NCBI GenBank assembly: GCA_018262975.1
Contig: JADFDG010000011.1
Coordinates: forward strand, 46,195 to 110,194
From: Gammaproteobacteria bacterium
GTDB lineage: Bacteria > Pseudomonadota > Gammaproteobacteria > Pseudomonadales > JADFDG01
Length of the DNA: 64,000 nucleotides
Direction: 5' to 3'
Shown here: positions 22,596-52,272 of the stretch, piece after piece
Numbering within the stretch: the stretch's first letter is position 1
Layout: the number at the start of each line of letters is the position of its first letter
Translations under genes and position numbers: made by a program
Notes under the pieces: generated by a model
What the model was told of the DNA's origin: nothing
What the model saw: only the letters and a program-made list of their open reading frames with translations
Database searches by the model: none

Positions 22596-22599
22596 GGCC

Positions 22600-24772: not shown

Positions 24773-26068
24773 TCATTTGGCCGCCGGCAGCACCTTCACC
24801 TTGAGCGGGGCCAGGAAACTCTCGGCATAGGCGCGCGGCGTCATGCCGCCGAGGTTCTCGTTGAAGGACAGCGTGGCCTTCATGTAGAAGTCGCGGCCGA
24901 TCGGCAGGTCGTCGAGAGAAAAGCCCACGTTGGGCCACTGGCCGATGAAGCGCTCCGGCGGGTCCTCGTCGCGGCGGGAATCCTTGTAGACCAGCGACAT
25001 CGGTACGTCGAAGCCCTTCTTGAACTCCATGCCGACCAGGGTCATGAAGCCCTGGCCGGTGTCGTAGAGCAACCAGTTCTTGTCGTTGGGTACCTTGCGT
25101 GCCATCAGCGCTGCCTCGGCGCTGTCGATGCGGCCGTCGGTGATCACCGGCTCGTCAAAGCCCCAGCTGGTCCACAACTTGCCGCCTTCCAGGCGGTTGC
25201 CGTCGACGGCCATGCTGCTCGCCGGCTTTTCCATGATGGTGGAGGCGATCGACGGGATCTTGAACTTGGCGTAGATCTCCGTCTGGCGCGGCTGGATCAC
25301 GTAGTACATCAGCACGGTGAGTACCGGCACGCGTGCCACCTCGACCTTGGCCTTGGCGAAGATTTCCGTCTGCACCTGCCCACGGCGGATCTCCACCACC
25401 TGCGTGTCGAGGTTGCGGTTGTCGAGGGTGATGCGGTTGTTTTTCGTGAACACGCCGGACGACAGCTTCACCTTCATGGTGTCCAGCAGCGTGCGCTTGC
25501 GCTTGCCGTCGGTGGCGGTGTAGGTGCGGAAGAAGAAGTCGTTCCACACGTTGAGGTTTTTCGGGTCGACGTTCAGTTCGTACCAGTCGGTGCCGATGAT
25601 CCCGGCGGTCTCGTCGTACTTGGTAAGCACGCGGTTGTTCTGCAGGAAGCCGGGCTCTGCCAGGTAGGCGTAGCGTGGCCCCTCGCTGGTCTGCACCTCG
25701 ATCTCGGCGTACAGCTTCTGCATGCTGCGACCCTGGAAGCGCGGGCCGGTGTCCTCCAGCTGGAAGACCAGTTCGTCGCTGGCGTCGAGGCGGTTGGCGT
25801 CACCGTTGGGCTGCGTGGAGTCGTCGGCCGCGAAGTACGGGAAGCCTTCCACCGAACGCTCGACGAATTGCAGCGGGATGGCGCGCATGCGGCCATCCTT
25901 CATCGACAGCAGCGCGTAGCGGCGCAGTTCGCTGCCGAGCAGGTGCGGGAACTGGCCGCCGGGCACGGTGACCAGCCGCGATTCCTCGGCCTTGGTCAGG
26001 GCGGAGGCCGTGGAGGCGGTACCCAGCAGCAGAAGTACGCCGGCGAGCGGCGCCAGGATTGATCGCAT
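24773..26068 (-). CDS. Secreted hypothetical protein
   Basis: 431 aa with signal peptide MRSILAPLAGVLLLLGTASTASA. Good coding composition. No recognised domain. Confidence 0.5.
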   Translation of the reverse strand: MRSILAPLAGVLLLLGTASTASALTKAEESRLVTVPGGQFPHLLGSELRRYALLSMKDGRMRAIPLQFVERSVEGFPYFAADDSTQPNGDANRLDASDELVFQLEDTGPRFQGRSMQKLYAEIEVQTSEGPRYAYLAEPGFLQNNRVLTKYDETAGIIGTDWYELNVDPKNLNVWNDFFFRTYTATDGKRKRTLLDTMKVKLSSGVFTKNNRITLDNRNLDTQVVEIRRGQVQTEIFAKAKVEVARVPVLTVLMYYVIQPRQTEIYAKFKIPSIASTIMEKPASSMAVDGNRLEGGKLWTSWGFDEPVITDGRIDSAEAALMARKVPNDKNWLLYDTGQGFMTLVGMEFKKGFDVPMSLVYKDSRRDEDPPERFIGQWPNVGFSLDDLPIGRDFYMKATLSFNENLGGMTPRAYAESFLAPLKVKVLPAAK

Positions 26069-28747: not shown

Positions 28748-31700
28748 ATGACCAGCGTTGACCTGCCTTCCGCCGCCGAACTCGAACTGCAATTGTCCGG
28801 GTGCCTGCGGGCCGACCGATTCCGCCTGCGCCGCGACTGGCGCCGGCTGGCCGACGCCACGCGCGGTGGCGGCCAGCCCGATGCGCAGGCGCTGGCGCGC
28901 TGGCAGGCGCGTCTGTCCGCCTCGCAGGCTGCCCGCGAGGCACGCCGGCTGTCGCTGCCCGTGCCGCAGTTCGACGACGCGCTGCCGGTCTGCCAGCGGC
29001 GCGAGGAGATCCGCGAGCTCATCGCGAAGCACCAGGTGGTGATCGTGGCCGGCGAGACCGGCTCGGGCAAGACCACCCAGTTGCCGAAGATCCTGCTGGA
29101 GCTCGGGCGCGGCGTGGACGGTTTCATCGGCCACACGCAGCCGCGCCGGCTGGCCGCGCGCGCGGTCGCCACCCGCATTGCCCAGGAGCTGGGTACAAAA
29201 CTGGGCGAGGGCGTCGGTTACCAGGTGCGCTTCACCGACGAGGTCGGCCCGAACAGCCACGTGAAGCTGATGACCGACGGCATCCTGCTGGCGGAAATCC
29301 CCCACGACCGCTTCCTCGAGAAGTACGACACGCTGGTCATCGACGAGGCGCACGAGCGCAGCCTCAACATCGACTTCCTGCTCGGCTACATCAAGCGCAT
29401 CCTGCCCAAGCGCCCCGATCTCAAGGTGGTGATCACCTCGGCGACCATCGACCACCTGCGCTTCGCGAAGCATTTCGCCGATGCCGCCGGCCGTCCCGCG
29501 CCGGTGATCGAGGTGTCGGGCCGCACGTACCCGGTGGAGACTATCTACCGGCCGCTGGCTGACGACGAGGAAGAGCGCGTGCTCGGCCTGCCGCAGGCGG
29601 TGCACAAGGTGATGGGCGAGATCCTCGCCCGCGAGCGAGCCGAGGGCCGGCCGGCCGCCGGCGACGTGCTGGTGTTCTGCACCGGCGAGCGCGAGATCCG
29701 CGAGGTGCACCAGCACCTGCGCAAGGCCATGCACGGCATCGAGGTGCTGCCGCTGTACGCGCGCCTGTCCAATGCCGAGCAGAACCGGGTGTTCGCGCCG
29801 CACGGCGGCCGCCGCATCGTGCTGGCCACCAACGTCGCGGAAACGTCCATCACGGTGCCGAACATCCGTTACGTGATCGATCCCGGGCTGGCGCGCATCA
29901 GTCGCTACAGCGCGCGCTCGCGCGTCCAGCGCCTGCCGATCGAGGCGGTGTCGCAGGCCAGCGCCAACCAGCGGCAGGGACGTTGCGGCCGCGTCGCCGC
30001 CGGCGTCTGCTATCGCCTGTACAGCGAGGCCGACTTCCTGTCGCGCCCCGAGTTCACCGATGCCGAGATCCAGCGCACCAACCTCGCCGCGGTCATCCTG
30101 CAGATGGCCTGGCTGGGCCTCGGTGACATCGAGGACTTCGATTTCATCGATCCGCCCGATCGTCGCTACGTGCAGGACGGCTGGCGGTTGCTCGAGGAAC
30201 TCAACGCGGTCGATGCGCAGCGCCAGCTGACAGCGGCCGGCCGCCAGCTGGCGCGCCTGCCGGTCGATCCGCGGCTGGGCCGCATGCTGCTGGAGGCCGC
30301 GCGCAACGGTTCGCTGGCCGAGATGCTGGTGATCGTCGCCGGCCTGGCCGTGCAGGACCCGCGCGACCGTCCGCACGATCGCCAGCAGGCGGCCGACGAG
30401 GCGCATGCGCTGTTCGCCGACAAGGAATCCGATTTCCTGTGGTACGTGAACGCCTGGCGCGCGCACGAGCAGGCGCGCCAGGACCTCTCCGGCAGCGAAC
30501 TGCGGCGCTGGGCCGAGCGCCACTACCTGTCGTTCCTGCGCCTGCGCGAATGGCGCGAAACCCATCACCAGTTGCGCCTCGCCTGTGCGGAGTTCGGCCT
30601 GAAGGAAGCCGACGCGCCGGCCGATTACGTGTCCATCCACCGGGCGTTGCTGTCCGGCCTGCTTTCGCAGGTGTTCATGCGCGAGGAGGGCCGCGATCCG
30701 GCCGACAAGAGTTACCTCGGCACCCGCTCGCGGCGCTTCGCGGTGTGGCCGGGCTCGGCGCTGGCGAAGAAGCCGCTGGCCTGGGGCGTGGCCGCGGAAA
30801 TCGTCGAAACGCACAAGACCTTTGCACGCACGGTGGCGCGCGTGCAGCCCGGCTGGATCGAGCACCAGGCGCAGCACCTGGTGCGCCGCGAGTGGTTCGA
30901 CGCCGCCTGGCACGGCAAGCGTGGCATGGTGCTGGCGCGCGAGCAGGTGTCGCTGCTCGGATTGATCCTGCATCCCGGCCGCGAGGTGCACTACGGGCCC
31001 ATCGACCCGAAGCTGTCGCGCGAACTGTTCATCCGCGGCGCACTGGTCAACGGCGACTGGGGCGGTCGCGAGCCGGCATACCGTTTCATCGCCCGCAACC
31101 AGGAGGTGGCCGCCACGGTCGATCGCCTCGAGGCCAAGCTGCGCCGCCGCGACGTGCGCGTTGATGATGCGGTCCTGTACGCGTGGTTCGACGCGCGCGT
31201 GCCGGCAGACGTGTTCAGTACGCAGAAGTTCGACCACTGGTACCGGCAGGCCGCCCGCGCCGACCGCGACCTGTTGTGCCTGTCCACCGCCGACCTGATG
31301 GCGCGCACGCCCGACGAGCTGGTACCGGAGGATTTCCCCGACCAGGCGCCGCTGGCCGGTGCGCATTTGCCGCTCGCCTATCACTTCGCGCCCGGCGAGC
31401 CGGATGACGGCGCCAGCCTCGAAGTGCCGGTGGCGGCGCTCAACCAGGTGCCGGCGGTGCAGCTGGACTGGCTGGTGCCGGGGCTGCTGCGCGAGAAGTG
31501 CATCGCACTGGTGAAGTCCCTGCCCAAGGACCTGCGCCGCGCCCTGGTGCCGGTGCCGGACGTGGTGGCCGGCGTGCTGCCGCGACTGGCGGCCGGCGAG
31601 CGGCCGCTGGTGGATGCGCTGGCCGCCGAACTGCGGCGCGTGTCCGGGCAGGACATCCGCCCGTCGCACTTCAACCTCGCCGCGCTGCCGGCGCACCTGC

Positions 31701-32689
31701 AGGTCAACCTGCGCGTGGTCGACGGCGACGGCAACCTGCTTGGCCAGGGGCGCGACCTTGCCGCGCTGAAACAGGCGCTGGGCGCGCAGGCGGCGCAGGC
31801 CGTGGTCGCGGTGCGTGCCGGCGCGATCGGTCGCGAGGACATCCGCGACGCCGGATTCGAGGCATTGCCGGCGGTAATCGAGCAGCAGCAGGGCGGCCTT
31901 ACCCTGAAGAGTTACCCGGCGCTGGTGGACGAGGGCGATCGTTGCGCGGTGCGCCTGTACGCCGACGAGGGTACCGCGCGCGAGGTGCATCGCCGTGGCC
32001 TGCGCCGCCTGTTCCTGTTGCAGAGCGCGGCGATCCTGCGGCCGTTGCGCAAGGCGCTGCCGGGTTTCAGCCAGGCAGCGCTGCATTACCGCCATGTCGG
32101 CAGCGCCGACGAGTTGCTCGACGACCTGTGGCTGGCGGTGGCGGACCTGACCTTCCTGCGCGAGGGCGATGACATCCGCGATGCCGATGCCTTCGTGGCG
32201 CGCTGGGAAGCGCGGCGCAGCGAACTGCACGCCAATGGCAACCGGCTGGTGAAGTCGGTGGGCGATACGCTGGCGCGTGCCCACGAGGTCCGCCAGGCAC
32301 TCGGCAGGCTGGCGGCGCGCGATGCGTCCTGTCGCGATGACATGCAGGCCCAGCTCGACGAGTTGCTCGGCCCGCGCTTCGTCAGCGAAACACCGGTGCT
32401 CTGGCTGCTGGAATTCCCGCGCTATCTGCAGGCCCTGCAGGCGCGCATCGAGAAATTGCCCGGCCAGCCCGACAAGGATGCCGCGTTCGCGCGCGAATTG
32501 CGCGCGCTGTGGGCGGACTACGCAGCACTGCGCGCGCAACTGGAAGGGCAGGGCCGGCAGTCCGCCGAGCTGGTCACCTACCGGTGGATGATCGAGGAAT
32601 ACCGGGTGTCGCTGTTCGCGCAGCAGTTGCGCACGCGCATGCCGGTGTCCGCGCAGCGCCTCGCCCGGCAACGCGACAGCGTGGCCTGA
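28748..32689 (+). CDS. hrpA: ATP-dependent RNA helicase HrpA (DEAH box)
   Basis: 1313 aa. [19 protein letters not shown], ...[11 protein letters not shown]... and the long HrpA C-terminal region. Confidence 0.92.
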
Positions 32690-32698
32690 CGCGCCGGC

Positions 32699-33691
32699 TT
32701 GCAGCGGGCGCGTCGCCGCGTCAGGATGCCGGCCAGAGGTATTGCCATGAATCCAGCCAATCCGCGCAGCCCGGCGCGCGCCGGCCAGCACGACGCCGAG
32801 TCGACGCTGGTGGCCGTCAACGACCGCGACCAGTTGCACGTGCGCCATTTCGGTGGCGGCACGCGCAACACCACGGTCGTGCTGCTGCATGGCCTGTTCG
32901 AGGATGGCAGCCTGTTTTTCGGCAACAACGACGCGCTGGCGCCCGCGCTGGTGCGCGCCGGCTTCGACGTGTGGGTGCCCGACCTGCGCGGCCGCGGTCG
33001 CAGCTGGCCGGCACTGACCCCGGAACTGGCCGCGGATTTCGACTACGGCGTGCACGCCGCGGTGACCGAGGACCTGGCCACGGTCTTTGGCTTGCTGCGC
33101 GAGGGCGCCCCGGACAAGCCCGTCTACCTCGTCGGCCACGGTACTGGCGGGTTGTTGTGGCTGAATTTCCTCGCCCGCTGGCCCATCGTGCGCGAAATGG
33201 TGCGTGGCATCGTGCTGCTGGGCAGCGCGACATCGATCGAGCACGCCGGCCTGTTGCCGGCCCTGCGCTGGAACCTGCGCGATGGCTTGTGGGCCTCGGT
33301 GCTGGCCCGTCGCGGTGGCCTGGTGCCGGGCGCGCGGCTGGCGCAGGGGCAGGGCGTCGAGCCGCTGCGCTACTACCGTGAACTGCGGGACATGCTTGCG
33401 CACGGCTGGATCGATCCGGCCGACGCCCTGGACCACGCCGCGCAACTGCGCGAACTGCCGTTCTGGCCGCCCACGCTGGTGGTGGCCGCCGACCGCGACG
33501 CGCCCTGGTCCGGGCCGGACAGCGCCCGTCGCCTGCAGGCGCAGTTGCCGCCGCACGACGGCCGTCTTTACCTGTTCCCGGCTGCCTCCGGCGTGTCGCT
33601 GCTGGGTCCGCGCTCGGCGCTGGCCGGTGGTGCCGGTGCCGGGGAGCTGCAGGCCCTTGTGCTAGACTGGCTCGCCGCCTTCGACGGCTGA
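32699..33691 (+). CDS. Alpha/beta hydrolase family protein
   Basis: VVLLHGLFEDG and nucleophile elbow-like VGHGTGG. The start may be the ATG at 32747 (MNPANPRS). Confidence 0.6.
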   Translation: MQRARRRVRMPARGIAMNPANPRSPARAGQHDAESTLVAVNDRDQLHVRHFGGGTRNTTVVLLHGLFEDGSLFFGNNDALAPALVRAGFDVWVPDLRGRGRSWPALTPELAADFDYGVHAAVTEDLATVFGLLREGAPDKPVYLVGHGTGGLLWLNFLARWPIVREMVRGIVLLGSATSIEHAGLLPALRWNLRDGLWASVLARRGGLVPGARLAQGQGVEPLRYYRELRDMLAHGWIDPADALDHAAQLRELPFWPPTLVVAADRDAPWSGPDSARRLQAQLPPHDGRLYLFPAASGVSLLGPRSALAGGAGAGELQALVLDWLAAFDG

Positions 33692-33773
33692 ACCCACTCC
33701 CATTCCGATCGACCGCGGTCGTCCCCCCGCAGGAAGCGGCGTCCGGGCGTCCGCCTGTACAGGGGACCTGTCC

Positions 33774-34913
33774 TTGAATTCCTCTTCGCGCGCCGGCGAC
33801 ATCGTCATCACGGGCACCGGCCTGTTCACCCCCGCCGAGTCCATCTCCAACGCCGAGCTCGTCGCGTCGTTCAACGAGTACGTCAGCCGCTACAACGCCG
33901 CCCGTGCCGACGACATCGCCGCCGGCCGCTGCGAGGCGCTGGCGCCGTCCAGCGAGGAATTCATCGAGAAAGCCTCGGGCATCAAGAGCCGTTACGTCAT
34001 CAACAAGTCCGGCGTGCTGGACCCCGAGCGCCTGTGCCCGGTCATCCCGGAGCGCGCCGAGGAAGAACCCTCGGTGCAGTGCGATATGGCGGTGGCCGCC
34101 GCCAGCGAAGCGCTGGCAAAGGCCGGCCTTTCCGGCGCCGACATCGACGCGGTGATCGTCGCCTGCTCGAACATGCAGCGCCCGTACCCGGCCATGGCGG
34201 TGGAAGTGCAGGCCGCCATCGGCGCCCGCGGCTTTGCCTACGACATGAACGTGGCCTGCTCGTCGGCCACCTTCGGCATCCAGGCTGCGTACAACGCCAT
34301 CGTCGCCGGCAGCGCCGACCGCGTGCTGGTGGTCAACCCGGAAATCTGCTCGGCCCACCTGGCCTGGCAGGACCGCGATTGCCACTTCATCTTCGGCGAT
34401 GCCTGCACGGCGGTGATCGTCGAGCGCGCGTCGGTGGCGAAATCCGCCGAGCAGTGGGAAGTGCTGGGCACCCGCCTGCAGACCGTCTACTCGAACAACA
34501 TCCGCAACAACTTCGGTTTCCTGAACCGCTGCGACGAGTCGGGCATCGGCCAGCGCGACAAGCTGTTCCACCAGAACGGCCGCCGCGTCTTCATGGACGT
34601 CTGCCCGATGGTGGCCGAGCAGATCACCGATCACCTCGGCAAGCTGGCGGTGCCGGTCGATTCGCTCAAGCGCATGTGGCTGCACCAGGCCAACCTCAAG
34701 ATGAACGAGCTGATTTCCCGCAAGGTCCTCGGCCGCGACGCCACCGTCGAGGAGGCGCCGATCATCCTTGATCGCTACGCCAACACCAGTTCCGCCGGCT
34801 CGGTGATCGCTTTCCATCTGTACAAGGACGACCTCAAGCCGGGTGACACCGGCGTGATCTGCTCGTTCGGTGCCGGCTATTCGATCGGCAGCGTTGTCGT
34901 CCGTCGTCGTTGA
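33774..34913 (+). CDS. Beta-ketoacyl-ACP synthase III (long FabH-like KAS III)
   Basis: 379 aa with a TTG start. Active-site region ...AYDMNVACSSATFG..., ...LHQANLKMN... and C-terminal ...NTSSAGSVIAF...FGAGYS.... Confidence 0.8.
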   Translation: MNSSSRAGDIVITGTGLFTPAESISNAELVASFNEYVSRYNAARADDIAAGRCEALAPSSEEFIEKASGIKSRYVINKSGVLDPERLCPVIPERAEEEPSVQCDMAVAAASEALAKAGLSGADIDAVIVACSNMQRPYPAMAVEVQAAIGARGFAYDMNVACSSATFGIQAAYNAIVAGSADRVLVVNPEICSAHLAWQDRDCHFIFGDACTAVIVERASVAKSAEQWEVLGTRLQTVYSNNIRNNFGFLNRCDESGIGQRDKLFHQNGRRVFMDVCPMVAEQITDHLGKLAVPVDSLKRMWLHQANLKMNELISRKVLGRDATVEEAPIILDRYANTSSAGSVIAFHLYKDDLKPGDTGVICSFGAGYSIGSVVVRRR

Positions 34914-34939
34914 ACTTTCCAATCACGGAGAATCCACGC

Positions 34940-35284
34940 ATGTCCAGGCTCAACAAGATCAACGCGTTCGCGGCGTCGGTAGTTGCCGGCGCACTCGGTG
35001 TTTCCGCGGCCCACGCCACCGGCAATCCGTTTGCTGCCAGCGACTTGCCGGCCGTGCAGCTGGCCTCGGCCGAGGGTAAGGATGCGGAAGGCAGGTGCGG
35101 CGAAGGGCGTTGCGGTGAAGGCATGTGCGGCGGCATGGCGGAAAGCGCCGATGCCGGCCAGAGCGCTCCGGCCGGCAGCCAGGACACCGCTCCGGCCGAC
35201 CAGAAAGCCGACGACAAGAGGGCCGCCGAAGGCACCTGTGGCGGTAAGGCGGCCGCTGAAGGCGCCTGCGGCAACCACAAGTAA
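34940..35284 (+). CDS. Secreted Cys-motif RiPP precursor candidate (HvfA-like, EGxCG repeats)
   Basis: 114 aa from the ATG at 34940 (SD ACGGAG). Signal peptide ...[10 protein letters not shown]. Five Cys, all inside E-G-x-C-G motifs: [28 protein letters not shown]. Immediately upstream of DUF692 and DUF2063 genes. Confidence 0.6.
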
Positions 35285-35295
35285 ACACACCGGCC

Positions 35296-36132
35296 ATGGT
35301 GGCCACCGCGCTGTCCGGCGCCGGCCTCGGCCTGCGGCGGGCCCTGCTGGGCCCGCTGGCAGGGCACGCCGCGATCGGCGAGCCGGCGGGCTTTGATTTC
35401 CTCGAGGTGGCGCCGGAAAACTGGATCGGCGTGGGCGGGCGGCTGGGCCGCCGCCTGCGCGAACTCACCGAGCGCCACCCGTTCGTCACGCACGGCCTTT
35501 CCCTGTCGCTGGGCAGTCGTGACCCGCTCGATATCGAACTGGTGCGCGCGATCGGCGCCTTCCTCGACACCCACGGCATCGACACCTACAGCGAACACCT
35601 GAGCTTCTGCAGCGACGGAGGTCACCTCTACGACCTGGCGCCGTTGCCGTTCACCGAGGAGACGGTGCGGCACGTCGCGGCACGCATCCGCACCGTGCAG
35701 GACCTGCTCGGCCGCCGCATCGCCATCGAGAACATCTCCTACTACGCCGTGCTGCAGGCGGACCTGGACGAACCGACGTTCATCAATGCCGTGCTGGCGG
35801 AGGCTGATTGCGACCTGCTGCTGGACGTCAACAACGTGTTCGTCAACGCGGTGAACCACGGCTACGACGCCGAGGCCTTCCTCGCTGCCATGCCCGGCGA
35901 GCGCATCCGCTACCTGCACGTCGCCGGCCACCACGACGAAGCCCCGGACCTCAAGGTCGATACCCACGGCGCCGACGTCATCGACCCGGTGTGGACGCTG
36001 CTGGCGTCGGCCTATCGCCGTTTCGGCGTGAAGCCCACGCTGCTGGAGCGCGACTTCAACCTGCCGCCACTGCCGGCGTTGCTGGCGGAAGTCGCGCAGG
36101 TGCGTGCCCTGCAGCAGGCGGCCACCCCATGA
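35296..36132 (+). CDS. DUF692 / MNIO family (MbnB/HvfB-like) RiPP maturase candidate
   Basis: 278 aa. ...[12 protein letters not shown]...[16 protein letters not shown]..., ...YSEHLSF..., ...IENISYY..., ...[16 protein letters not shown]..., ...LHVAGH... and C-terminal ...PTLLERDFN. Confidence 0.8.
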
Positions 36133-36881
36133 GCACGGCAGACGGGGCAGGGCGGCAACAGGCGTTCGCGGACTGGGTGCGCCAACCCGGTGGCACACCG
36201 CCCGCCGGCATCGATGCACGCCGCGCCGCGCTGTACCGGAAGTTGTTCTTCAACAACGTGGCGAACCTGCTGTCCACGTTCTTTCCGCTGTCGCGCAGCC
36301 TCTACGCGCCGGAAGCCTGGCGCGCGCTGGTCGCGGATTTCTTCGCGCGCCATCGCGCCGGTTCGCCGTACTTCCTCGACCTTGCCCGCGAATTCCTCGA
36401 TTTCCTCGCCCAGGCACGCGGCGATCATCCCGATGACCCGCCCTGCCTGCGCGACCTGGCCCACTACGAGTGGCTGGAACTGGTACTGGACGTGGCCGAA
36501 GAGGAGCTGCCGGTTTCCGGTATCGATCCGCACGGCGACCTGCTGGCCGGAATACCGGTGCTGAACCCCGTGGCGGTGCTCGCCACTTACGCCTGGCCGG
36601 TACACCGCGTGGTGGTCGGCGAGCCGCTGCCAGCACCGCAGCAGACCTTCCTGGCCGGCTGGCGCGACCCGGCGGACCAGGTGCGTTTCATGGTCTTCAA
36701 CGCGGAGACTGCCCACCTCTACAGCGCGCTGCGCGAGTCGCCGACCTTGTCCGGCCGCGAGGCCGCGCTGGCCGTTGCGCAGGCCACCGGGCATGCCGAT
36801 CCGGCGGCGGTGGTGGAGGGTGCTGCCGACATGCTGCGGCAATGGCGCGAGCGACACATCGTGCTGGGCACGCGCACCTGA
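36129..36881 (+). CDS. DUF2063 (MbnC/HvfC-like) partner protein
   Basis: 250 aa from the ATG at 36129 (ATGA overlap with the DUF692 gene). ...[20 protein letters not shown]... and ...[10 protein letters not shown].... Confidence 0.7.
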
Positions 36882-36957
36882 CCGCCCGGCGCCCGCCGGC
36901 GCTTGCACCCCCGGACGCATGCACTAGACTGCCGCCTCCCGATTCCGCCTGCCCCCG

Positions 36958-37719
36958 TTGATGCCACCCATGACCGCCTGCCTGCGTTCCCTGTCGCTGC
37001 TCGTCCTGCTGGCACTTCCCGCCGCTACCATGGCCGACAACGGCGCGCGCGATCCGTGGGAAGGTTTCAACCGCAAGGTGTATGCCTTCAACCACTGGGT
37101 CGATACCTGGCTGGCCAAGCCGGTGGCGATTGGTTACCAGGCCGTCACCCCGGAATTCGTCGACAACCGTGTCACCCGTTTCTTCTCCAACCTCGGTGAC
37201 GTGACCAACGCCGCCAACCTCGCGCTGCAGGGCGAGGGCAAGCAGGCGCTGGACAGCACCGGGCGGGTACTGGCCAACAGCACCCTGGGTCTGGCCGGCT
37301 TGTTCGACGTCGCGTCCGTCGGGGGCATCCCGCGGCGGGAAACCACTTTCGGTACCACGCTGGGCAAGTGGGGCGTGTCGTCCGGAAACTACCTCGTGCT
37401 GCCGTTCCTCGGCCCCTCCACCGTCCGTGATGCCGCGGGCATCCCGGTGGACTGGGCATTCGGCCCGGTGATCCGCCCGTGGACGCTGTTCGACGACGAC
37501 GCCACCCGTTACGGCCTGCAGGCACTTGACCTCGTCGATACCCGCGCCGACCTCCTGCAACTGGAGGAGGCAGTGGTGGGCGATCGCTACGCGTTCCTGC
37601 GCGACATCTACCTGCAGCGCCGCGACTTCACCGTCGAGGGCGCCAGCGCCGCCGACCCGTTCCTCGACGAGGAGTTCGACGACGAGGAGGAGGAAGACGA
37701 GGGCCCGGCCGCCGAGTGA
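36958..37719 (+). CDS. mlaA: MlaA/VacJ family lipoprotein
   Basis: 253 aa. DPWEGFNRKVYAFNHWVD... and acidic C-terminal tail. Confidence 0.8.
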   Translation: MMPPMTACLRSLSLLVLLALPAATMADNGARDPWEGFNRKVYAFNHWVDTWLAKPVAIGYQAVTPEFVDNRVTRFFSNLGDVTNAANLALQGEGKQALDSTGRVLANSTLGLAGLFDVASVGGIPRRETTFGTTLGKWGVSSGNYLVLPFLGPSTVRDAAGIPVDWAFGPVIRPWTLFDDDATRYGLQALDLVDTRADLLQLEEAVVGDRYAFLRDIYLQRRDFTVEGASAADPFLDEEFDDEEEEDEGPAAE

Positions 37720-37784
37720 CGGTGCCTGCGCTTGCCGGCGCCGGTTGACGGGTATACCGTACGGCAAACCTCGCGGAGACGGGC

Positions 37785-38972
37785 ATGCCCGCCAACCAGG
37801 ATCGCTGCATCCTGCTGCTCGACAACGACCCCGCCATGCGCGACCAGTTGCATGGCATGCTGGCAGCCATCGGTTGCCCGGCCACCGTCGTCGTCGATGC
37901 CGATGACATCCACGCGCGAGCCGCCGCCGCCGACCTGCTGATCTGCGACCTCGACAATCCGCATGGTGCGGCGGATCTGGTGCGCGCGTTGCAGGCCAAC
38001 GATCCTGACCTGCCGGTGATCGTCGTCGCCCGCGAACCCGACGTCGATGACGTGGTGGAAGCCCTGCGTGCCGGCGCCTTCGATTTCCTGCGCTGGCCCA
38101 TTCCCGATGCGGGCATCTTCGGGCGCGCGGTGCAGCGCGCCATCGACGCGCGCAATCTCGAGCGCGAGAACCGCCGCTACCGCGAGCGCCTCGAGCAGGC
38201 CAACGCCGAACTGCAGGCCAGCCTGCGCCTGCTGCGCGAGGACGAGGACGCCGGGCGTCGCGTGCAGCAACGCATCCTGCCGGAGTCGCCGCGCGATTAC
38301 GGCTGGGCGCAGGTCGAGCACCGCGTGGTCCCGTCGCTCTACCTGTCAGGTGATTTCGTCGACTATTTTGAGGTCGGCGAGCGACGCCTGGCGTTCTATC
38401 TTGCCGACGTCTCCGGCCATGGTGCGTCGAGCGCCTTTGTCACCATGCTGCTGAAGACCCTGGGCAACCGCGCCCGTCGCGACATTGCCCGCGATCCGGT
38501 CCATGCCTCGCAACCCTCGTTGATGCTGGCCCTGGCCAACCGCGAGCTGTTGTCGCTGGGCCTGGGCAAGCACGTGGCCATGTTCTGCGGAATCATCGAT
38601 TTCAGCACCCGTCAACTGCATTACGCCGTCGCCGGTCAGTACCCGCAACCCATTGTTTCTGATGGGAAATGTGCCTGTTATCTGGAAGGTAAGGGTATGC
38701 CCGTAGGGCTATTTGACGGTGCGGTGTACGAGGATAGAATGCACGCGCTTCCGGAAGGGTTTGCCCTCGTGCTGCTTTCGGATGGCGTCATGGAACTGCT
38801 GGGCGGCGCGTCGCTCGCAGAAAAGGAAACCCGCTTGCTGGACATGATCGGCAGCGGGGCTGTCACGGTAGACACCCTGGGTCGCGAACTGCAACTGGAT
38901 GGCACGCGGGAACTTCCCGACGACGTCGCGATGCTGGTCATCCGCGACAAGACGGCAAGCCCCGCGGCCTGA
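37785..38972 (+). CDS. Response regulator receiver fused to PP2C/SpoIIE phosphatase (RsbU-like)
   Basis: 395 aa. N-terminal REC (ILLLDNDPAM...LICDLDNP...) and a C-terminal PP2C region (...SGDFVDYF...YLADVSGHGASSAF...LLSDGVME...DDVAMLVI). Confidence 0.8.
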   Translation: MPANQDRCILLLDNDPAMRDQLHGMLAAIGCPATVVVDADDIHARAAAADLLICDLDNPHGAADLVRALQANDPDLPVIVVAREPDVDDVVEALRAGAFDFLRWPIPDAGIFGRAVQRAIDARNLERENRRYRERLEQANAELQASLRLLREDEDAGRRVQQRILPESPRDYGWAQVEHRVVPSLYLSGDFVDYFEVGERRLAFYLADVSGHGASSAFVTMLLKTLGNRARRDIARDPVHASQPSLMLALANRELLSLGLGKHVAMFCGIIDFSTRQLHYAVAGQYPQPIVSDGKCACYLEGKGMPVGLFDGAVYEDRMHALPEGFALVLLSDGVMELLGGASLAEKETRLLDMIGSGAVTVDTLGRELQLDGTRELPDDVAMLVIRDKTASPAA

Positions 38973-38984
38973 GAGGCCGATGGC

Positions 38985-39488
38985 ATGAATTGCGGCACGA
39001 TTCTCTACGCGGTGAGCGATGGCACCTGGGTGCTGCGTTTCCGCGGCGATGTCCGTGCGCCCTGGTGTGCGTCGCTGGATGCCCTCGTCGAGCGCCTGTT
39101 CGCCGACCCGTCGGTGAAGTCGGTCGTCGTCGACCTGCGTGAAGCCACCAACATCGACAGCACCATGCTCGGCATGCTCGCGCGCGTCGCCATGCGTTCG
39201 CGCCAGCAGCATGGCCGCGACGCCGTGCTGGTCGGTCCCAATGCCGACGTGCACCGGCTGCTCGACAGCATGTGCTTCGACAAGGTCTGCCGCGTGGTGG
39301 ATGCCGCCGCCGAGGCCGGTTGCGAGTGCGCCGAACTGGCGCCGGTGGAGAGCCCCGAGGCGGACATGTGCCGGCAGGTTGCCGATGCCCACCGCGTGCT
39401 GATGGACATCGACGAACGCAACCGCGCGGTATTCCGTGACGTGGTCGCCACCCTCGAGGACCAGCAGCGCGCCGCCGGCGAGCACTGA
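38985..39488 (+). CDS. STAS domain protein (anti-sigma-factor antagonist-like)
   Basis: 167 aa. ...VVVDLREATNIDSTMLGMLA.... 12 nt after the PP2C gene. Confidence 0.7.
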   Translation: MNCGTILYAVSDGTWVLRFRGDVRAPWCASLDALVERLFADPSVKSVVVDLREATNIDSTMLGMLARVAMRSRQQHGRDAVLVGPNADVHRLLDSMCFDKVCRVVDAAAEAGCECAELAPVESPEADMCRQVADAHRVLMDIDERNRAVFRDVVATLEDQQRAAGEH

Positions 39489-39534: not shown

Positions 39535-40002
39535 TCAGGCCTCGCCCTGCGCCAGCAGGCGCGCGTGGATGTAGTCGTCGTGCGGCACGTACATCAGTCC
39601 GGCCACCTGGCGGATGATGTATTCCTCGTACTTGTCGATGCGCCCGTCGGCCAGCGCGATCTTCCACATCTCGATGAGCAACTGCTTGCGCTCGGCCTGG
39701 TTGCAGTGGCGGTTGACCACCTGCGTCAGTTCGGTGAGCGACACCGCGTGCGCCGAATGGTGGCGGGCGCGTTGCGCGAACTGTTCGGCCTCGTCGACCG
39801 TGAGCGCGTGCTTCTCGCGCAGCAGCGCCAGCAGGCGCTGCTGTTCCTCGGCACCGAACGCCTGGTCGGCGAGGGCGGCTTCCACCAGCAGTGCCGCCGA
39901 CGCCAGCTGCAGTTCGTGGGCATCGCGGGCCGCGTCGCGCTGCGACGCGTAGACCTGCGCCTTCAGGCGCGCTTCCAGCCAGCGGGAAAGGTCACCGATC
40001 AT
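39535..40002 (-). CDS. TerB family (tellurite-resistance-like) protein
   Basis: 155 aa. ...ADGRIDKYEEYIIRQVAGLMYVPHDDY... is typical of the TerB-like fold. Confidence 0.65.
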   Translation of the reverse strand: MIGDLSRWLEARLKAQVYASQRDAARDAHELQLASAALLVEAALADQAFGAEEQQRLLALLREKHALTVDEAEQFAQRARHHSAHAVSLTELTQVVNRHCNQAERKQLLIEMWKIALADGRIDKYEEYIIRQVAGLMYVPHDDYIHARLLAQGEA

Positions 40003-43610: not shown

Positions 43611-43686
43611 GGGGCTATAGCTCAGCTGGGAGAGCGCAACAATGGCATTGTTGAGGTCATCGGTTCGATCCCGATTAGCTCCACCA
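43611..43686 (+). tRNA. tRNA-Ala (anticodon GGC)
   Basis: Hand-folded cloverleaf: acceptor GGGGCTA/TAGCTCC with the G3:U70 Ala identity pair, D arm GCTC...GAGC, anticodon stem CAACA/TGTTG with loop A-T-GGC-A-T, T arm ATCGG-TTCGATC-CCGAT, encoded CCA. Confidence 0.9.
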
Positions 43687-43859: not shown

Positions 43860-45050
43860 ATGCCGCTATCTGACGCCGCTGTCCGCTCCGCCAAGCCAAA
43901 AGAGAAGCCGCAAAAACTCGCGGACGGTGGGGGGTTGTACCTCCTCATCACGCCTACCGGCAGCAAGTGGTGGCGGCTGAAGTACCGCTTCGACGGCAAG
44001 GAAAAGTCGCTGTCGCTTGGTGTGTATCCGGATACCGGACTCAAGGAAGCGCGCGAGAAAAGGGATGCGGCGCGCAAGCTTCTCGCGGCCGGTGTCGACC
44101 CGGGCGAGAACAGGAAGGCGGCGAGGGCCGCGCGCGCCCTGGAGGAAACAAACAGCTTTGAAGTCGTTGCCCGCGAATGGTTTGCCAAGCAGGAGTCCGT
44201 GTGGGCGGAGTCGCATAGCTCCAAGGTCATTCGGCGCCTGGAAGCCGATGTCTTCCCCTGGATTGGCAAGCGATCCATGGACAGCCTCACGGCGCCAGAC
44301 CTGTTGGCCGTCTTGCGGAAGGTCGAGGGCCGCGGCGCGGTAGACACCGCGCACCGCATCCTTCAGAACTTCGGTCAGGTCTTCCGCTATGCCGTCGCCA
44401 CGGGGCGGGCCACCAGCAATCCAGCGCCCAACCTCCGGGGCGCCTTGAAGGCCATCAAGCAATCCCACTTCGCTTCGCTCACCGACCCCAAGGATGTCGG
44501 CGCCTTGCTTCGGGCCATCGATGGTTACGAGGGGGCATACGCCACCAGGGCTGCCCTCCGGCTGGCGCCGCTGGTATTTGTCCGGCCGGGTGAATTGAGG
44601 GCGGCGGAATGGTCCGAGATCGACTTTGACCAGGCGGAATGGAACATCCCCGCCGCGCGGATGAAGCTCCGCATCCCGCACTTGGTGCCGCTCTCCCGGC
44701 AGGCCCTCGAGATCCTTCGGGACCTTCACAAGGTGACTGGAAAGGATCGCTACCTCTTTCCAAGTTCCCGGACGACGGATCGGCCGATGAGCAACAACGC
44801 AATCCTCGCCGCCCTGCGGCGCATGGGGTACGAGCAGGGCGAGATGACTGGGCACGGCTTTCGGGCCATGGCCCGGACGATCCTTGATGAGGTGCTCCAG
44901 GTACGACCTGACTACATCGAGCACCAGCTCGCGCACGCCGTCCGTGATCCCAACGGCCGGGCGTACAACCGGACCGCGCACAAGGCTGAACGGGCCAAGA
45001 TGATGCAGCGGTGGGCCGACTACCTGGATGGGCTGAGGGCTGATCGGTAA
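43860..45050 (+). CDS. int: Tyrosine-type site-specific integrase (P4/CP4-57-like, DUF4102 N-terminus)
   Basis: 396 aa. N-terminus LSDAAVRSAKPKEKPQKLADGGGLYLLITPTGSKWWRLKYRFDGKEKSLSLGVYP. Catalytic region ...HGFRAMARTIL...IEHQLAH...AYNR.... Adjacent to the tRNA. Confidence 0.92.
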   Translation: MPLSDAAVRSAKPKEKPQKLADGGGLYLLITPTGSKWWRLKYRFDGKEKSLSLGVYPDTGLKEAREKRDAARKLLAAGVDPGENRKAARAARALEETNSFEVVAREWFAKQESVWAESHSSKVIRRLEADVFPWIGKRSMDSLTAPDLLAVLRKVEGRGAVDTAHRILQNFGQVFRYAVATGRATSNPAPNLRGALKAIKQSHFASLTDPKDVGALLRAIDGYEGAYATRAALRLAPLVFVRPGELRAAEWSEIDFDQAEWNIPAARMKLRIPHLVPLSRQALEILRDLHKVTGKDRYLFPSSRTTDRPMSNNAILAALRRMGYEQGEMTGHGFRAMARTILDEVLQVRPDYIEHQLAHAVRDPNGRAYNRTAHKAERAKMMQRWADYLDGLRADR

Positions 45051-45637
45051 TCCGCGGGTGCCCACCGCCCGATGGTTCTAAGGAACCCCGGCAGGCGATG
45101 GCCTGTAACGGCCCCGGTTGGCGCTGCCCGGTGGTCAGGCGGCGCCCGTCAGATGAGTAAATTAGGTGGTAATTTTCAGTTAAAAGAAGATCATTACGTA
45201 TGAATAGATGAAGATTTATTCGTAAGTGATCGTGATATCAACGTTAAAGATGGTGATTTATCTAGAACATATGTTACTTATGCGTGGCATAGATAGGCGT
45301 TACTGTAGTAGATAAATGTATGATATACATGCGGTTGATGGTTAATATGGCTTCGCTGATCGGTATCCGGTGATCTGCGCTCGCAGGTGGTCGCCTGATA
45401 GCGTTGGTGAGCGAGCCACCGAGGCGCCATGTCGTGGGCCGCTCTTGGTTCACCGCGGCGCTCCCCGGGAAGGGCGCCAGGGGCTTGCTGGGTGGTGGGG
45501 GCGCAGTAAGGCGCCAGGGATGCGGCGGCCGGCTGAGTGGGCCAGCCGCCCCCAAGCGGAAACCGGGATGTTGGCTCGGGCGAGCGCCTTGGCACTTGGG
45601 GCGGACCCGGTCCAGATGTCTTCTAGGAGGGGCGGCG

Positions 45638-47065
45638 ATGGCGAGAGTTACTCGATTGGCCGGAAAGGAGAAGAAGCCCGGCGGCCGGCCCAAGCGAGGG
45701 ATCGCCGGCGCAGGGTCTGCCAGGCGGCAGGAGCCTTTCCGTAATCCCGCTGAACCCGCGCGCGTGGGTGGCGTCCGCGACCTCCTGCCGAACGATATTT
45801 ACGCCGCGTTAGAGGCGGACCAGGCAGCGCCTCCCTGGCCGCTTGGGGGAGACCGGTCTGCCGCCCTGCGGCCACCCAGGGTTGATATCCCTTTGGCACT
45901 CGCACGGGATATTCACTGCTTCATGATGCGAGCCCTCGGGTGTCGCGCGCCGGCCATCGCAACGAGTATTCCTGTGGCGTTCAAGCTGACGGCCCTTGGA
46001 AGGGACTTGGCTGGGTTGTTTGCCCAGATCAAGGCGGGGGTGCCGAGGGATTATTCTCACCACAGCGAGCATGTCCGGTTGTTTCTGGATGCCTACAAAC
46101 ACTTTGGGCTCGATGGCGGGGAGGGAGATCCGGACGCACTCGAGGGCGTCAACGCCGCACCAGATCCGCAGGTTCATCTACATGAGTACTTCTTGCGGTA
46201 TCTAAGGCAAAGGTCGAGGGAGCGAATTAAACCCAAGGAGTATCCGGTCACGCCGGATCAAAAGAAACACATTGAGGCAGCAAGGGCAAATCCTCTCCGG
46301 GCAAGGTATTGGGAGCAAAGGAAAAAGCGAAGGGCGCGCGCCTATAAAAGCAATCGAGCTGCCGCTGCTTTGATCGAGGATATTTTTCGAAGAGAAAAAT
46401 CCGTATACGTTGTAAGGCTTGATCTGGGAGTAATGCCCGATCTTTTTGAGGCCCTGAAGCTGAGCTATGTCACGGACGAGAAGACAATAAGAGCGAACAG
46501 GGAACTTACCGGCGACGCACTTTCGAAATCCATGCTTTCGCGTCCAGCAACCCCCGTGGAAGGGTTCAAGCAGCTGTTGAAGTCGCTGTTCAGATCGATC
46601 AACAAGGGCATTGGCCCTTTGCATGGCATAGTCGGACGATTTGCGCGGCTGATGTGGTCGCCCAGTAGGGGGCTTTATTGCCATCTGGTCCTTTTCTACA
46701 CGAAGCAGTCTGGCGGTGCCTGCAAGGATCTTGCGCAGAAGGTCGCTGATTACTGGGTGTTTTCTGCGACGAAGGGGGTTGGTGTTTACGCTGTCCCGGA
46801 TGAAGGTTCCAGCATTTACATCAGGAGCCCTGTGGGAAGTATCTCTGAGACTGATCTGTCAAAGAGGGAAGAACTGCTGTATTCGGCTAGCTACCTGAGT
46901 GCGATCGATGAATATTTTTCTCTTCCTTCGGATCTGGTTTGTTCCGGAGATGATGTTTTTTTCTACAGTGAGTTGCAAACGATCAAGCCGGTAGTTAGAC
47001 CTCATGAGAAGCGCAGACCGGGTAGGCCAAAAAAAGGTGAGCATTTCGACAGGAAAAACTCCTGA
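45638..47065 (+). CDS. Hypothetical protein with terminal AT-hook-like GRPK motifs and a YagK/YfjJ (inovirus Gp2)-like core
   Basis: 475 aa from the ATG at 45638 (AGGAGG SD 7 nt upstream). GGRPKRG near the N-terminus and RRPGRPKKG near the C-terminus. ...VYVVRLDLGV... and ...WSPSRGLYCHLVLFYTKQSGG... resemble the YagK/YfjJ pattern. The ORF-track N-terminal 78 aa is rejected. Confidence 0.45.
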   Translation: MARVTRLAGKEKKPGGRPKRGIAGAGSARRQEPFRNPAEPARVGGVRDLLPNDIYAALEADQAAPPWPLGGDRSAALRPPRVDIPLALARDIHCFMMRALGCRAPAIATSIPVAFKLTALGRDLAGLFAQIKAGVPRDYSHHSEHVRLFLDAYKHFGLDGGEGDPDALEGVNAAPDPQVHLHEYFLRYLRQRSRERIKPKEYPVTPDQKKHIEAARANPLRARYWEQRKKRRARAYKSNRAAAALIEDIFRREKSVYVVRLDLGVMPDLFEALKLSYVTDEKTIRANRELTGDALSKSMLSRPATPVEGFKQLLKSLFRSINKGIGPLHGIVGRFARLMWSPSRGLYCHLVLFYTKQSGGACKDLAQKVADYWVFSATKGVGVYAVPDEGSSIYIRSPVGSISETDLSKREELLYSASYLSAIDEYFSLPSDLVCSGDDVFFYSELQTIKPVVRPHEKRRPGRPKKGEHFDRKNS

Positions 47066-47290
47066 TCGATCATATATCTGCAGAGTTGTTTGTATGCCTA
47101 TTGGATCGCAAAGATCAGAGTTTTGTGCGTAAAGCGGCCGGAGATTGACGAGATCCTCTGTTGGTGTAGTTATGTAAATATATAGGTGCATCTAATATCC
47201 TTTCGACTAGAAAGGGTCGCATCAAATATACCCAGAGTAAAAAAATACTGTGATGGGTTTCCTGTGAGGTATTCACTGGAGATCCCACAA

Positions 47291-48037
47291 ATGCGAGTCA
47301 GACATCCAAACAACCGAAACCTTAGGCTGATGTATGGGTCGGAATGGCAGGGTCTGAGAGTAATCCAATATCCAAACGGCCTCATTGCGAACTACCTGGA
47401 GGACGTCAGTGAGTTGCTGGACGATACGGTCACGGATTACGCCAGATCGATCGTGCTTCGATTCGATCTGTGCATTCCGAATTTCCTGAGCCATGTGGAT
47501 TCCGCAGTAATCAGTCGATTTATCAGTGCAATGAAATCCAGACTCTCAGCAGATGCTGAGAAAAGGCGTCGATCTGGAGTCAGAATATATCCGTGCGAGC
47601 CCCGATTCGTTTGGGTCAAGGAGCAATGCCATTCGTCGGCCCCCCACTATCACGTCGCAATGACGTTGAACAATGACGCCTACTTCACGCTAGGGGCTAT
47701 CAGGCCTCGTTGGGAGGTGGAGTTGATGGCCAATGGAGATTATGGGGTAGAGCAGCGCCGCAATATGGTGGACAGGATCAGGGAGGCGTGGGCTTCAGCG
47801 CTTGGCGTTTCTTCTGCTGAGGCGGTTGGTTTGGTCCACATACCTGAAAACCCTGTTTATAAAATCGACCGGAACTCTCCGGAAGTGTTCGAGCAGTACG
47901 CGTGCGTCTTCTATCGACTTAGCTACTTCGCGAAGGCTGACACCAAACCGTATGGCGATGGCAGTCGCCACTTCGGGTGTAGTCGGCGCAGACTCGGTGG
48001 TTCCTTTTTGTGGGACTGCCCGCCAGATGAGGGATGA
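47291..48037 (+). CDS. YagK/YfjJ domain (inovirus Gp2 family) protein
   Basis: About 248 aa from the ATG at 47291 (GGAG upstream; the ORF-track GTG at 47186 is possible). ...SIVLRFDLCIPN..., ...RFVWVKEQCHSSAPHYHVAMTLNNDAYF..., ...IREAWASALG.... Confidence 0.55.
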   Translation: MRVRHPNNRNLRLMYGSEWQGLRVIQYPNGLIANYLEDVSELLDDTVTDYARSIVLRFDLCIPNFLSHVDSAVISRFISAMKSRLSADAEKRRRSGVRIYPCEPRFVWVKEQCHSSAPHYHVAMTLNNDAYFTLGAIRPRWEVELMANGDYGVEQRRNMVDRIREAWASALGVSSAEAVGLVHIPENPVYKIDRNSPEVFEQYACVFYRLSYFAKADTKPYGDGSRHFGCSRRRLGGSFLWDCPPDEG

Positions 48038-52015: not shown

Positions 52016-52029
52016 GAAGTGAGTCGGTC

Positions 52030-52071
52030 CTGTCGCGGGTGATGGCCTATTGCGCCACCGCCCCGCGACAG
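52030..52071. promoter_or_regulatory. Perfect 10-bp inverted repeat just upstream of the ARH-fusion gene
   Basis: CTGTCGCGGG (52030-52039) / CCCGCGACAG (52062-52071) with a 22-nt spacer, 15 nt from the proposed ATG at 52015. Confidence 0.3.
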
Positions 52072-52272
52072 TCGTTGTCGCAGAGCAAGACCATTCGCAT
52101 CGATGTAGAGGATGTCGAAACGGCGGGTGGCCCAAAGCATGCCGGGCGTAACCGGGACGTCGAGTATCTGGAGAAAATCTGGCAGGCTCACATGGAGGGC
52201 TGTACCAAACATCGCCTGAAGTGATATCTACTATCCGTGCAACATCAACCGTGCTCACAGGGCCATAGACCC

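Follow-up and report, generated by a model that had tools for sequence, protein, structure and literature searches.

Gene clusters that combine a multinuclear non-haem iron oxidative enzyme (MNIO, formerly DUF692) with a partner of the PME1 type are found in about half of the Pseudomonadota reference genomes (PMC13097082), and about 2,000 to 7,000 precursors of the EGKCG subgroup have been catalogued (PMC12452194, PMC13097082). Systems of this kind have been described from nontypeable Haemophilus influenzae (HvfABC(X), oxazolin; NTHI1440-1444), from Fontimonas thermophila (FonABC, fontiphorin), whose peptide falls in the Lys-Cys group of the class named 'captophorins' (PMC13097082), and from Microbulbifer (MmrABC, bulbicupramide; PMC12538549). 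The oxazolone/thioamide structure of HvfA was revised to 5-thiooxazole by two groups in 2026 (PMC13097082; bioRxiv 10.64898/2026.06.05.730506), and the presence of 5-thiooxazole has been shown in HvfA, FonA and NgoA, the assignment for MmrA being tentative (PMC13097082, PMC12538549, bioRxiv 10.64898/2026.06.05.730506). In the present work a 64,000-nucleotide stretch of a gammaproteobacterial contig (JADFDG010000011.1, positions 46,195 to 110,194 of the forward strand; hereafter the window) was analysed, in which a precursor peptide, an MNIO and a DUF2063/RRE partner are encoded by three consecutive genes on the + strand (34940-36881). The locus is very probably a functional three-gene captophorin cluster of the HvfABC/FonABC/MmrABC type, i.e. 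of the EGKCG or 'Lys-Cys' group. This assignment stands on the identities of the genes, the intact catalytic and substrate-contact residues of the enzyme, the homology of the precursor and the geometry of the operon. The cluster is an ordinary case of a well-described and very common bacterial type, the loss of lysine from the precursor motifs is its sole oddity of note, and beyond correct annotation its significance is small.

The hvfA-like precursor gene extends from the ATG at 34940 to the TAA ending at 35284 and encodes 114 amino acids; a ribosome-binding site, GGAGAA (34927-34932, +), could be read directly from the sequence 7 nt 5' of the ATG. The MNIO gene, hvfB (35296-36132, +, 278 amino acids), follows the precursor stop codon after a gap of 11 nt, and the ATG of the partner gene, hvfC (36129-36881, +, 250 amino acids), overlaps the hvfB stop codon in an ATGA at 36129-36132. 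The initial annotation had described the same gap and overlap, as well as a 114-residue signal-peptide protein with all of its five cysteines in E-G-x-C-G, and these descriptions proved to be exact. As context, a PRK07515-type KAS III gene (for a beta-ketoacyl-ACP synthase III; 33774-34913, +; NCBIfam NF005703, 638 bits) lies upstream, its stop codon (34911-34913) being separated from hvfA by 26 nt, and the mlaA lipoprotein gene (36958-37719, +; Pfam MlaA, 232 bits) is situated 76 nt 3' of hvfC. No second precursor and no paralogous MNIO or partner was found in the window.

The start of the precursor is supported by its homologues, which open with the same MS[RK]L… sequence. In the closest relative, a metagenomic contig (L081; related loci are given L numbers throughout), the 11-nt gap, the ATGA overlap and the 26-nt distance to the KAS III gene are all kept. 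The two hvfA genes encode products of 89% amino acid identity and differ by 20 synonymous and 13 non-synonymous changes. Since the resulting dN/dS is 0.18, the precursor open reading frame (ORF) is a real gene under purifying selection. Most replacements fall in the Cys-free spacer or, in two motifs, at position x, and the EGxCG frame is preserved at all five sites. The corresponding dN/dS values were 0.07 for the KAS III gene and about 0.085 for that part of hvfB which the short L081 contig covers; the enzymes, too, are intact and under purifying selection, as measured on this HvfB portion.

The five cysteines of the precursor (C53, C58, C63, C100 and C110) all stand within E-G-x-C-G, where x is R, R, M, T and A, respectively. 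The core sites are arranged as 3 + 1 + 1: three motifs in tandem (35087-35131, +) are separated by a 36-residue, acidic, Cys-free spacer from a distal pair (35228-35272, +) made up of EGTCG (C100; 35228-35242) and EGACG (C110; 35258-35272), and on the reading of the motif they are predicted 5-thiooxazole sites. Chance is far from explaining this pattern. When the mature peptide was shuffled 200,000 times with its composition preserved, no shuffle contained more than two motifs and 1.3% of them contained any, and no EGxCG was found outside the precursor ORF in the six-frame translation of the whole window.

Residues 1-26 (34940-35017, +) have the build of a Sec-type signal peptide: a basic n-region (R3, K6), an h-region with a mean Kyte-Doolittle hydropathy of 1.68 and A-x-A at positions -3/-1. 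Cleavage by signal peptidase I is predicted by rule after A-H-A26, and the segment could be aligned with the corresponding signal peptides in 57 relatives. In the case of HvfA, a 24-residue signal peptide is cleaved in E. coli (PMC11252979). The few database relatives of the precursor have in common this signal peptide and the segment NPFAASDL (N29 to L36 in the window peptide; 35024-35047, +), followed by EGKCG repeats. The NPF is present in 59 of 71 precursors, and NPFAASDL is a probable recognition region for the RRE domain of the partner. FonBC tolerated each of the single Ala substitutions made ahead of the core, and no single residue there is required (PMC13097082).

The homology of the precursor was examined with a home-made profile constructed from 57 precursors encoded directly 5' of HvfB relatives, the window peptide and its closest homologue being left out. 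The window peptide was matched with 48.5 bits (E = 4.5e-11 for 10^6 sequences) and was the only match among the 778 six-frame segments of the window. No Pfam match to the precursor was obtained, DUF2282 included, and the spacer is without a Pfam domain. From the profile match, the peptide appears to be a homologue of the HvfA/FonA-type precursors, not an equivalog by the curated standard. In the precursors of L006, L015, L016, L024, L040, L053 and L075 the EGKCG blocks flank a calcium-binding (EF-hand-like) insert of the D-x-D-G-D-G type, and these relatives match the second precursor type described in PMC12452194. The equivalent position in the window precursor is occupied by the low-complexity acidic spacer, which has no domain match, and the EF-hand subtype was rejected for this peptide.

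The MNIO scored 418.4 bits on the NCBIfam HvfB family (NF003818, cut-off 360) and 333.8 bits on Pfam PF05114 (MbnB_TglH_ChrH). It remained below the cut-offs of BufB (NF050167, 254.5 vs 310 bits), MbnB (TIGR04159, 62.8 vs 325 bits), ApyH and ChrH. Among solved structures, 3BWW from Histophilus somni comes nearest (E = 8e-71); it shares 72% identity with HvfB (bioRxiv 10.64898/2026.07.17.739211). When the window protein is aligned with its 80 closest genomic relatives, the iron-site residues H66, H101, E145, D177, N180, H208, D222, H224 and E251 are invariant, with at most one exception in the 81 sequences. A phmmer alignment to MbnB (7TCR) placed eight of them on H90, E133, D163, N166, H192, D208, H210 and E239, the Fe1, Fe2 and Fe3 ligands of MbnB being taken from PMC9060507; H66 falls outside this local alignment, but is conserved in comparison with 3BWW. 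The site-3 residues are essential in HvfB (bioRxiv 10.64898/2026.07.17.739211). R14 and R15 are invariant in the 81 sequences, and D253, which comes after the Glu ligand, is followed by F254. By motif position, not by alignment to FonB, these two pairs seem to correspond to R15/R16 and D249/F250 of FonB, of which R15/R16 contact Glu1 of the motif, D249 is the catalytic base and F250 contacts Lys3 and Gly5 (PMC13097082).

The partner passed the NCBIfam HvfC model (NF050145, 251.8 bits, cut-off 142) and contains the Pfam domains DUF2063 (78.4 bits) and NGO1945_C, which is of RRE type (83.9 bits). Its only solved relative is 3DEE (NGO1945, E = 2.3e-5). A match to the precursor profile was found directly 5' of the MNIO gene in 67 of the 80 closest MNIO relatives. 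Together with the HvfB and HvfC scores and the intact catalytic residues this supports the HvfABC-like assignment of the initial annotation, in which metal binding would follow by analogy; the annotation had allowed that the DUF692 protein might fall outside the MNIO clades that act on peptides made by the ribosome and modified after translation (RiPPs), and we judge that it does not. Of the profile searches proposed there, those for the two enzymes succeeded, and the one for the precursor gave no BufA match and an HvfA score below the cut-off.

Six of the related loci (L031, L036, L050, L051, L056 and L070) have a different arrangement, the MNIO-partner pair being preceded by an endonuclease-III-like gene and a gene for a DUF1841 protein (181 bits in the example of L051). 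The precursor profile found no match anywhere in these loci, and their substrate is either encoded elsewhere or of a different type. The DUF1841 protein also holds an 'NPF' tripeptide, which may be a coincidence.

The HvfABC(X) system of H. influenzae has the same order of precursor, MNIO and DUF2063/RRE partner as the window cluster, and both precursors carry a Sec signal peptide and repeated E-G-x-C-G; the likeness extends to the HvfB and HvfC equivalog cut-offs passed by the window proteins and to 3BWW as the nearest structure. In contrast to HvfABC(X), the window cluster is without a DoxX (HvfX) gene. Furthermore, HvfA contains six modified cysteines in three AEGKCGEGKCG units and a disulfide pair in its N-terminal region, whereas the window peptide has five cysteines and no extra pair. 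The MmrABC cluster (PMC12538549) consists, like that of the window, of three genes without DoxX. Five Microbulbifer loci in the present set (L010, L011, L020, L026 and L042) correspond to the published mmrABC cluster; they share the hrpA … mlaA frame of the window, and their MNIOs are 65-67% identical to that of the window. Their precursors have motifs of EGKCG type and are very Lys-rich (KKKEGKCGEGKCG cassettes), while the window peptide is acidic and lysine-free, and unlike in the window no KAS III or hydrolase gene stands between hrpA and the cluster.

FonABC (PMC13097082) has the same pair of MNIO and PME1 partner, the N-terminal R-R and the D-F after the Glu ligand of FonB are kept in the window MNIO by motif position, and FonBC accepts in vitro the R, A and T variants of position 3 that occur in the window peptide. 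However, FonA has seven EGKCG sites and the window peptide five without a Lys-Cys dyad, thus the membership of the latter in the 'Lys-Cys' group is formal only.

More distant are the bufferins (BufA1, a DUF2282 protein, or BufA2, with BufB and BufC; PMC11626156, PMC12452194), which resemble the window locus in the enzyme pair and in the signal peptides of their precursors and have thiooxazole chemistry and copper binding in common with the group to which it belongs. They differ in that the window precursor is without DUF2282, the MNIO is under the BufB cut-off and neither a sigma/anti-sigma pair nor DoxX is present. A bufferin identity was rejected, as no DUF2282 or Buf_6/12Cys precursor was found and the MNIO_BufB score was 254.5 vs 310 bits. 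Methanobactin (MbnABC) shares the MNIO fold and the iron ligands, and in both systems a Cys is oxidised to a copper-binding heterocycle. In contrast, the product there is an oxazolone/thioamide and not the 5-thiooxazole of the window's group, and the partner is MbnC and not a DUF2063 protein. Moreover, methanobactin is a small exported chalkophore, while the product of the window locus carries a signal peptide and would be periplasmic, and no transport or uptake genes are present. This identity was also rejected, on the MbnB score (62.8 vs 325 bits) and on the partner, which is DUF2063 and not MbnC.

The chemistry of the modification, its order before export and the binding of copper can be proposed for the window peptide by analogy with HvfABC, FonABC, NgoABC and MmrABC. 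The hvfA gene would be translated as a 114-residue precursor with a Sec signal peptide. In the cytoplasm HvfC would dock the precursor through its RRE domain and form a heterodimer with the MNIO HvfB; binding of the precursor by an HvfC-type RRE and the heterodimer with HvfB are known from related systems (PMC11252979, PMC13097082). The mixed-valent Fe(II)/Fe(III) centre of HvfB would then use O2 for the four-electron oxidation of each of the five motif cysteines to a 5-thiooxazole. The initial annotation had left the choice between oxazolone-thioamide and thiooxazole. Since HvfA and its EGKCG relatives have been reassigned to 5-thiooxazole, this, and not a choice between the two, is the expected chemistry at the window locus. 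A 5-thiooxazole is marked by -4 Da per Cys, by absorbance near 305 nm and by being S-alkylatable. The expected change of -4 Da per site would amount to -20.16 Da in total and would shift the mature peptide from 8,421.69 to 8,401.53 Da. Export by Sec and cleavage after Ala26 would leave in the periplasm an acidic peptide of 88 residues with a pI of about 4.5 and, when unmodified, a monoisotopic mass of 8,421.69 Da. Its thiooxazole groups would bind Cu(I), and the peptide might buffer copper or oxidative stress in the envelope. This physiological role is the least certain step of the proposal.

The peculiarity of the locus lies in position x of the motif. Of 491 sites in the relatives, 428 have Lys before the Cys, and each of the 70 other precursors has at least one such Lys. 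No repeated E-G-K-C-G, i.e. no Lys-Cys dyad, was found in the window peptide, in which the E-G-x-C-G skeleton is present five times with no Lys; it is a motif variant of the EGKCG group, not a different family. Position x reads K, K, K, K, R, M, A and K in the eight sites of the nearest species-level relative, L001, and K, R, M, A and A in L081. Because of this motif series in L001 and L081 the window precursor, which has 5 cysteines vs 8 in L001, looks like a shortened, K-depleted derivative. The net charge of its core is -4 and its pI is 4.5, compared with a median pI of 6.8 in the relatives, a few of which are equally acidic. Met at position 3 occurs in four examples among the relatives. 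The GC content of the backbone is 64-70%, and we infer that such a high-GC genome would favour a drift from Lys to Arg or Ala.

Since FonBC accepts A, R or T at position 3 (PMC13097082), no single residue ahead of the core is required and the window enzyme keeps the residues of the EGKCG type, none of the peculiarities of the peptide predicts a loss of function. The natural R/M/T/A substrate matches the in vitro tolerance of FonBC and extends it to Met, and it would be a convenient test of the part of Lys in processing and in copper binding. In practical terms, the NCBIfam models would leave the precursor unnamed despite its apparent membership of the family, and motif models centred on lysine miss natural variants.

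Several observations weigh against the assignment of the locus to a working captophorin cluster. The window peptide scored below the cut-offs of the NCBIfam precursor models (19.7 vs 95 bits for HvfA, 16.2 vs 19.5 bits for KCGExKCG_twice), and it is the sole precursor of the 71 without a Lys before any Cys. The G-Y that follows the NPF in 65 of the 71 precursors is replaced by P-A-V, and the recognition or processing of a precursor without this near-universal pair could be less efficient. The Met at position 3 of the C63 motif, a predicted site, falls outside the set of residues tested in vitro. A substrate with one repeat was not modified by FonBC (PMC13097082), and by analogy the processing of the two distal motifs, which are not in tandem, might be poor. 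A search of 32500-38000 for sigma-70-like promoters gave none, and neither copper-homeostasis genes nor a copper regulator were found in the window. The syntenic mmr cluster of Microbulbifer was not detectably expressed, and its authors hesitated over a copper-protective role (PMC12538549).

The part of the proposal most exposed to these points is the role of the peptide. It is possible, at odds clearly short of even, that the five thiooxazoles are installed and that the peptide serves not copper buffering but defence against oxidants or hypochlorite, the handling of another metal such as zinc or gold, or an envelope homeostasis linked to KAS III and MlaA. The role of the EGKCG peptides is explicitly unsettled (PMC13097082), the Microbulbifer study showed neither expression of the cluster nor copper protection (PMC12538549), the window offers no copper gene or regulator, and hvfA, for which no promoter of its own was detected, lies 26 nt behind the KAS III gene. 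On the other hand, every characterised member of the group binds Cu(I) (PMC11252979, PMC13097082, PMC12538549, PMC11626156). The association with KAS III, which was found with the cluster in only 6 of the 80 relatives and across a gap of approx. 130 nt in L001, also argues for a shared neighbourhood and not for functional coupling.

It is improbable that decay or poor processing leaves the precursor partly or completely unmodified, to act, if at all, as an ordinary metal-binding Cys-thiolate or disulfide peptide. The lysine-free motifs, the lost G-Y, the scores below the NCBIfam cut-offs and the reduction to 5 cysteines from the 8 of L001 would all fit such a decay; in addition, unmodified HvfA also binds Cu(I) (PMC11252979) and, as mentioned, a single-repeat substrate was not modified by FonBC. 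However, a dN/dS of 0.18 with all five EGxCG frames kept in L081, and intact enzymes with a dN/dS of 0.085 for the HvfB portion, count against it. FonBC tolerates three of the four residues found at position 3 (R, A and T; PMC13097082), and truncated fragments of HvfA were still modified (PMC11252979).

A functional captophorin cluster remains the preferred assignment, within which a more specific history of the lineage can be formulated. The lineage represented by the window and the metagenomic contigs L081 and L082 may have lost DoxX, its own upstream intergenic region and every motif Lys, and may now produce an acidic 3 + 1 + 1 thiooxazole peptide which is transcribed behind a medium-chain KAS III and has a non-copper role, co-transcribed with lipid genes; taken as a whole, this history has a slim chance of being right. 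If the changes were adaptive, and not drift under GC pressure, a different metal preference or mode of metal assembly would be possible, as would a co-regulation with fatty-acid and outer-membrane lipid homeostasis (KAS III 5', MlaA 3') instead of copper stress.

The genomic context was compared by tblastn of nine window proteins against the 80 related loci. A conserved frame was recognised, hrpA - (alpha/beta-hydrolase - KAS III) - hvfA - hvfB - hvfC - (doxX) - mlaA - response-regulator/PP2C phosphatase - STAS, which was found in Microbulbifer, Halieaceae, Porticoccaceae, Cellvibrionaceae, Ketobacter and several unnamed gammaproteobacterial metagenome-assembled genomes (MAGs). The hrpA…mlaA synteny was observed in 20 loci with enough flank. 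It suggests an old vertical inheritance as a core locus, and it supports a core envelope function over a mobile biosynthetic island. An 'obligate conservation' of the cluster within the genus was stated for Microbulbifer (PMC12538549). The nearest species representative is L001, a MAG named 'Pseudomonadota bacterium', which shows 56-86% amino acid identity over eight flanking and enzyme genes (HrpA 75%, KAS III 86%, HvfB 72%, HvfC 56%, MlaA 67%) and 40% in the precursor. The slot that corresponds to 28748-39488 of the window is occupied in the same way in L001, L003, L010, L011, L013, L017, L018, L020, L022, L026, L038, L042, L054, L057, L059, L062, L068, L072 and L074. We know of no prior description of the hrpA…mlaA frame.

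The initial annotation had remarked that no DoxX-type gene and no sigma/anti-sigma pair is adjacent and that a KAS III gene stands immediately upstream, and it had taken these as departures from the known versions. When the Pfam-confirmed DoxX proteins of the relatives were used in tblastn against the whole window, nothing below E = 0.05 was obtained, which bears out the absence. It is no departure, since DoxX is also missing from mmrABC and from 43 of the 68 relatives with enough flank, and from 18 of the 20 loci in the hrpA…mlaA frame; in this part of the family loci without DoxX are more common than loci with it, and DoxX is not a defining feature. Pfam scans of most called window ORFs revealed no ECF sigma/anti-sigma pair, and in this strict sense the second remark also holds. 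Two genes 3' of hvfC, at 37785-39488 (+), there is nevertheless a partner-switching pair, a response-regulator receiver fused to a SpoIIE/PP2C phosphatase and a STAS anti-sigma-antagonist-like protein. Since in the syntenic loci this pair accompanies mlaA and not hvfABC, it is probably unrelated to the hvf cluster. A TerB-domain gene follows on the opposite strand (39535-40002, -).

The position of the KAS III gene was likewise given correctly, and only its standing as an unusual feature was not upheld: it lies 5' of hvfA in 6 of the 80 loci (L001, L017, L034, L062, L067 and L076), its product matches the primary-metabolism model NF005703 (PRK07515) over the full length, and the gene belongs to the chromosomal backbone conserved around the cluster and is a possible source of read-through. 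On the same two grounds, co-occurrence and full-length match, it was rejected as a component of the cluster. That the KAS III, possibly together with the upstream alpha/beta-hydrolase, is a tailoring component which, for example, acylates the peptide to a new lipidated variant is most improbable: the 26-nt gap, kept in L081, and the lack of an intergenic promoter do imply co-transcription, and the order hydrolase - KAS III - hvfA recurs in L001, L017 and L062, but the gaps before hvfA are about 130-300 nt in these three loci, 74 of the 80 relatives lack the gene, the characterised Microbulbifer loci of this frame among them, the precursor has no lipobox Cys or other acylation motif, and KAS III enzymes of this type, for example PA3286 and RsFabW, supply fatty-acid synthesis with medium-chain acyl-CoA (PMC4549310).

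Because the 26-nt gap leaves no room for an intergenic promoter, hvfABC is in this lineage probably transcribed by read-through from upstream or from a promoter that lies within KAS III. No terminator-like fold was detected in the hvfC-mlaA spacer (z = +1.68; of 200 shuffles, 194 gave a fold as good or better). When the whole window was scanned with Rfam, tRNA-Ala alone was returned, with no riboswitch or other known RNA element near the locus.

A parallel may exist in Pseudomonas aeruginosa, where PA3283/PA3284 are presumably the DUF692/DUF2063 pair, homologous to hvfB and hvfC, and the nearby PA3286 is presumably a medium-chain KAS III. The genes PA3282-PA3284, annotated as 'hypothetical', were 4- to 5-fold up in a mutant of the zinc-uptake gene znuA, and no Zur box was listed for them (PMC4542158). 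If the presumed identities are true, the KAS III neighbourhood and the response to zinc limitation would deserve attention, and the induction would count in favour of a role other than copper buffering.

Two of the related loci come from MAGs with unexpected names, L016 ('uncultured Halobacteria archaeon') and L067 ('Patescibacteria group bacterium'). Both hold typical gammaproteobacterial hvfABC-doxX loci, and a KAS III fragment of L067 is 82% identical to the KAS III of the window. They are probably mis-binned contigs or mislabelled bins.

The remainder of the window consists of a housekeeping backbone and an apparent genomic island. The backbone contains a gene pair for a MoxR-like AAA ATPase and a VWA (CoxE-like) protein (21756-23778, +). 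Seven ORFs of 272-553 amino acids in the window gave no Pfam match. Three of them are backbone ORFs with high GC at the third codon position (24773-26068, 17313-18779 and 6905-7759, all -). The other four are putative island ORFs (45404-47065, +; 48122-49453, -; 52643-53461, -; 62385-63812, -), of which 48122-49453 passed on codon-position GC.

The island is apparently integrated at a tRNA-Ala(GGC) gene (43611-43686); the region concerned is 43611-64000, the island runs past the end of the window, and the GC content falls from about 0.65-0.70 to about 0.52 within it. It carries a P4-type integrase gene (43860-45050, +), a YagK/YfjJ-family gene (47186-48037, +) and an ORF of 701 amino acids with an ADP-ribosylglycohydrolase domain (50153-52258, -). 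Further on, the BREX genes for BrxL (53522-55561, -) and PglZ (55577-58324, -), a gene for a TOTE-conflict-system-like protein with DUF7017 and S1CSD-TOTE-2 domains (58204-59613, -) and one for a NERD + UvrD_C helicase (59610-62378, -) are present, and the whole looks like a phage-defence island.

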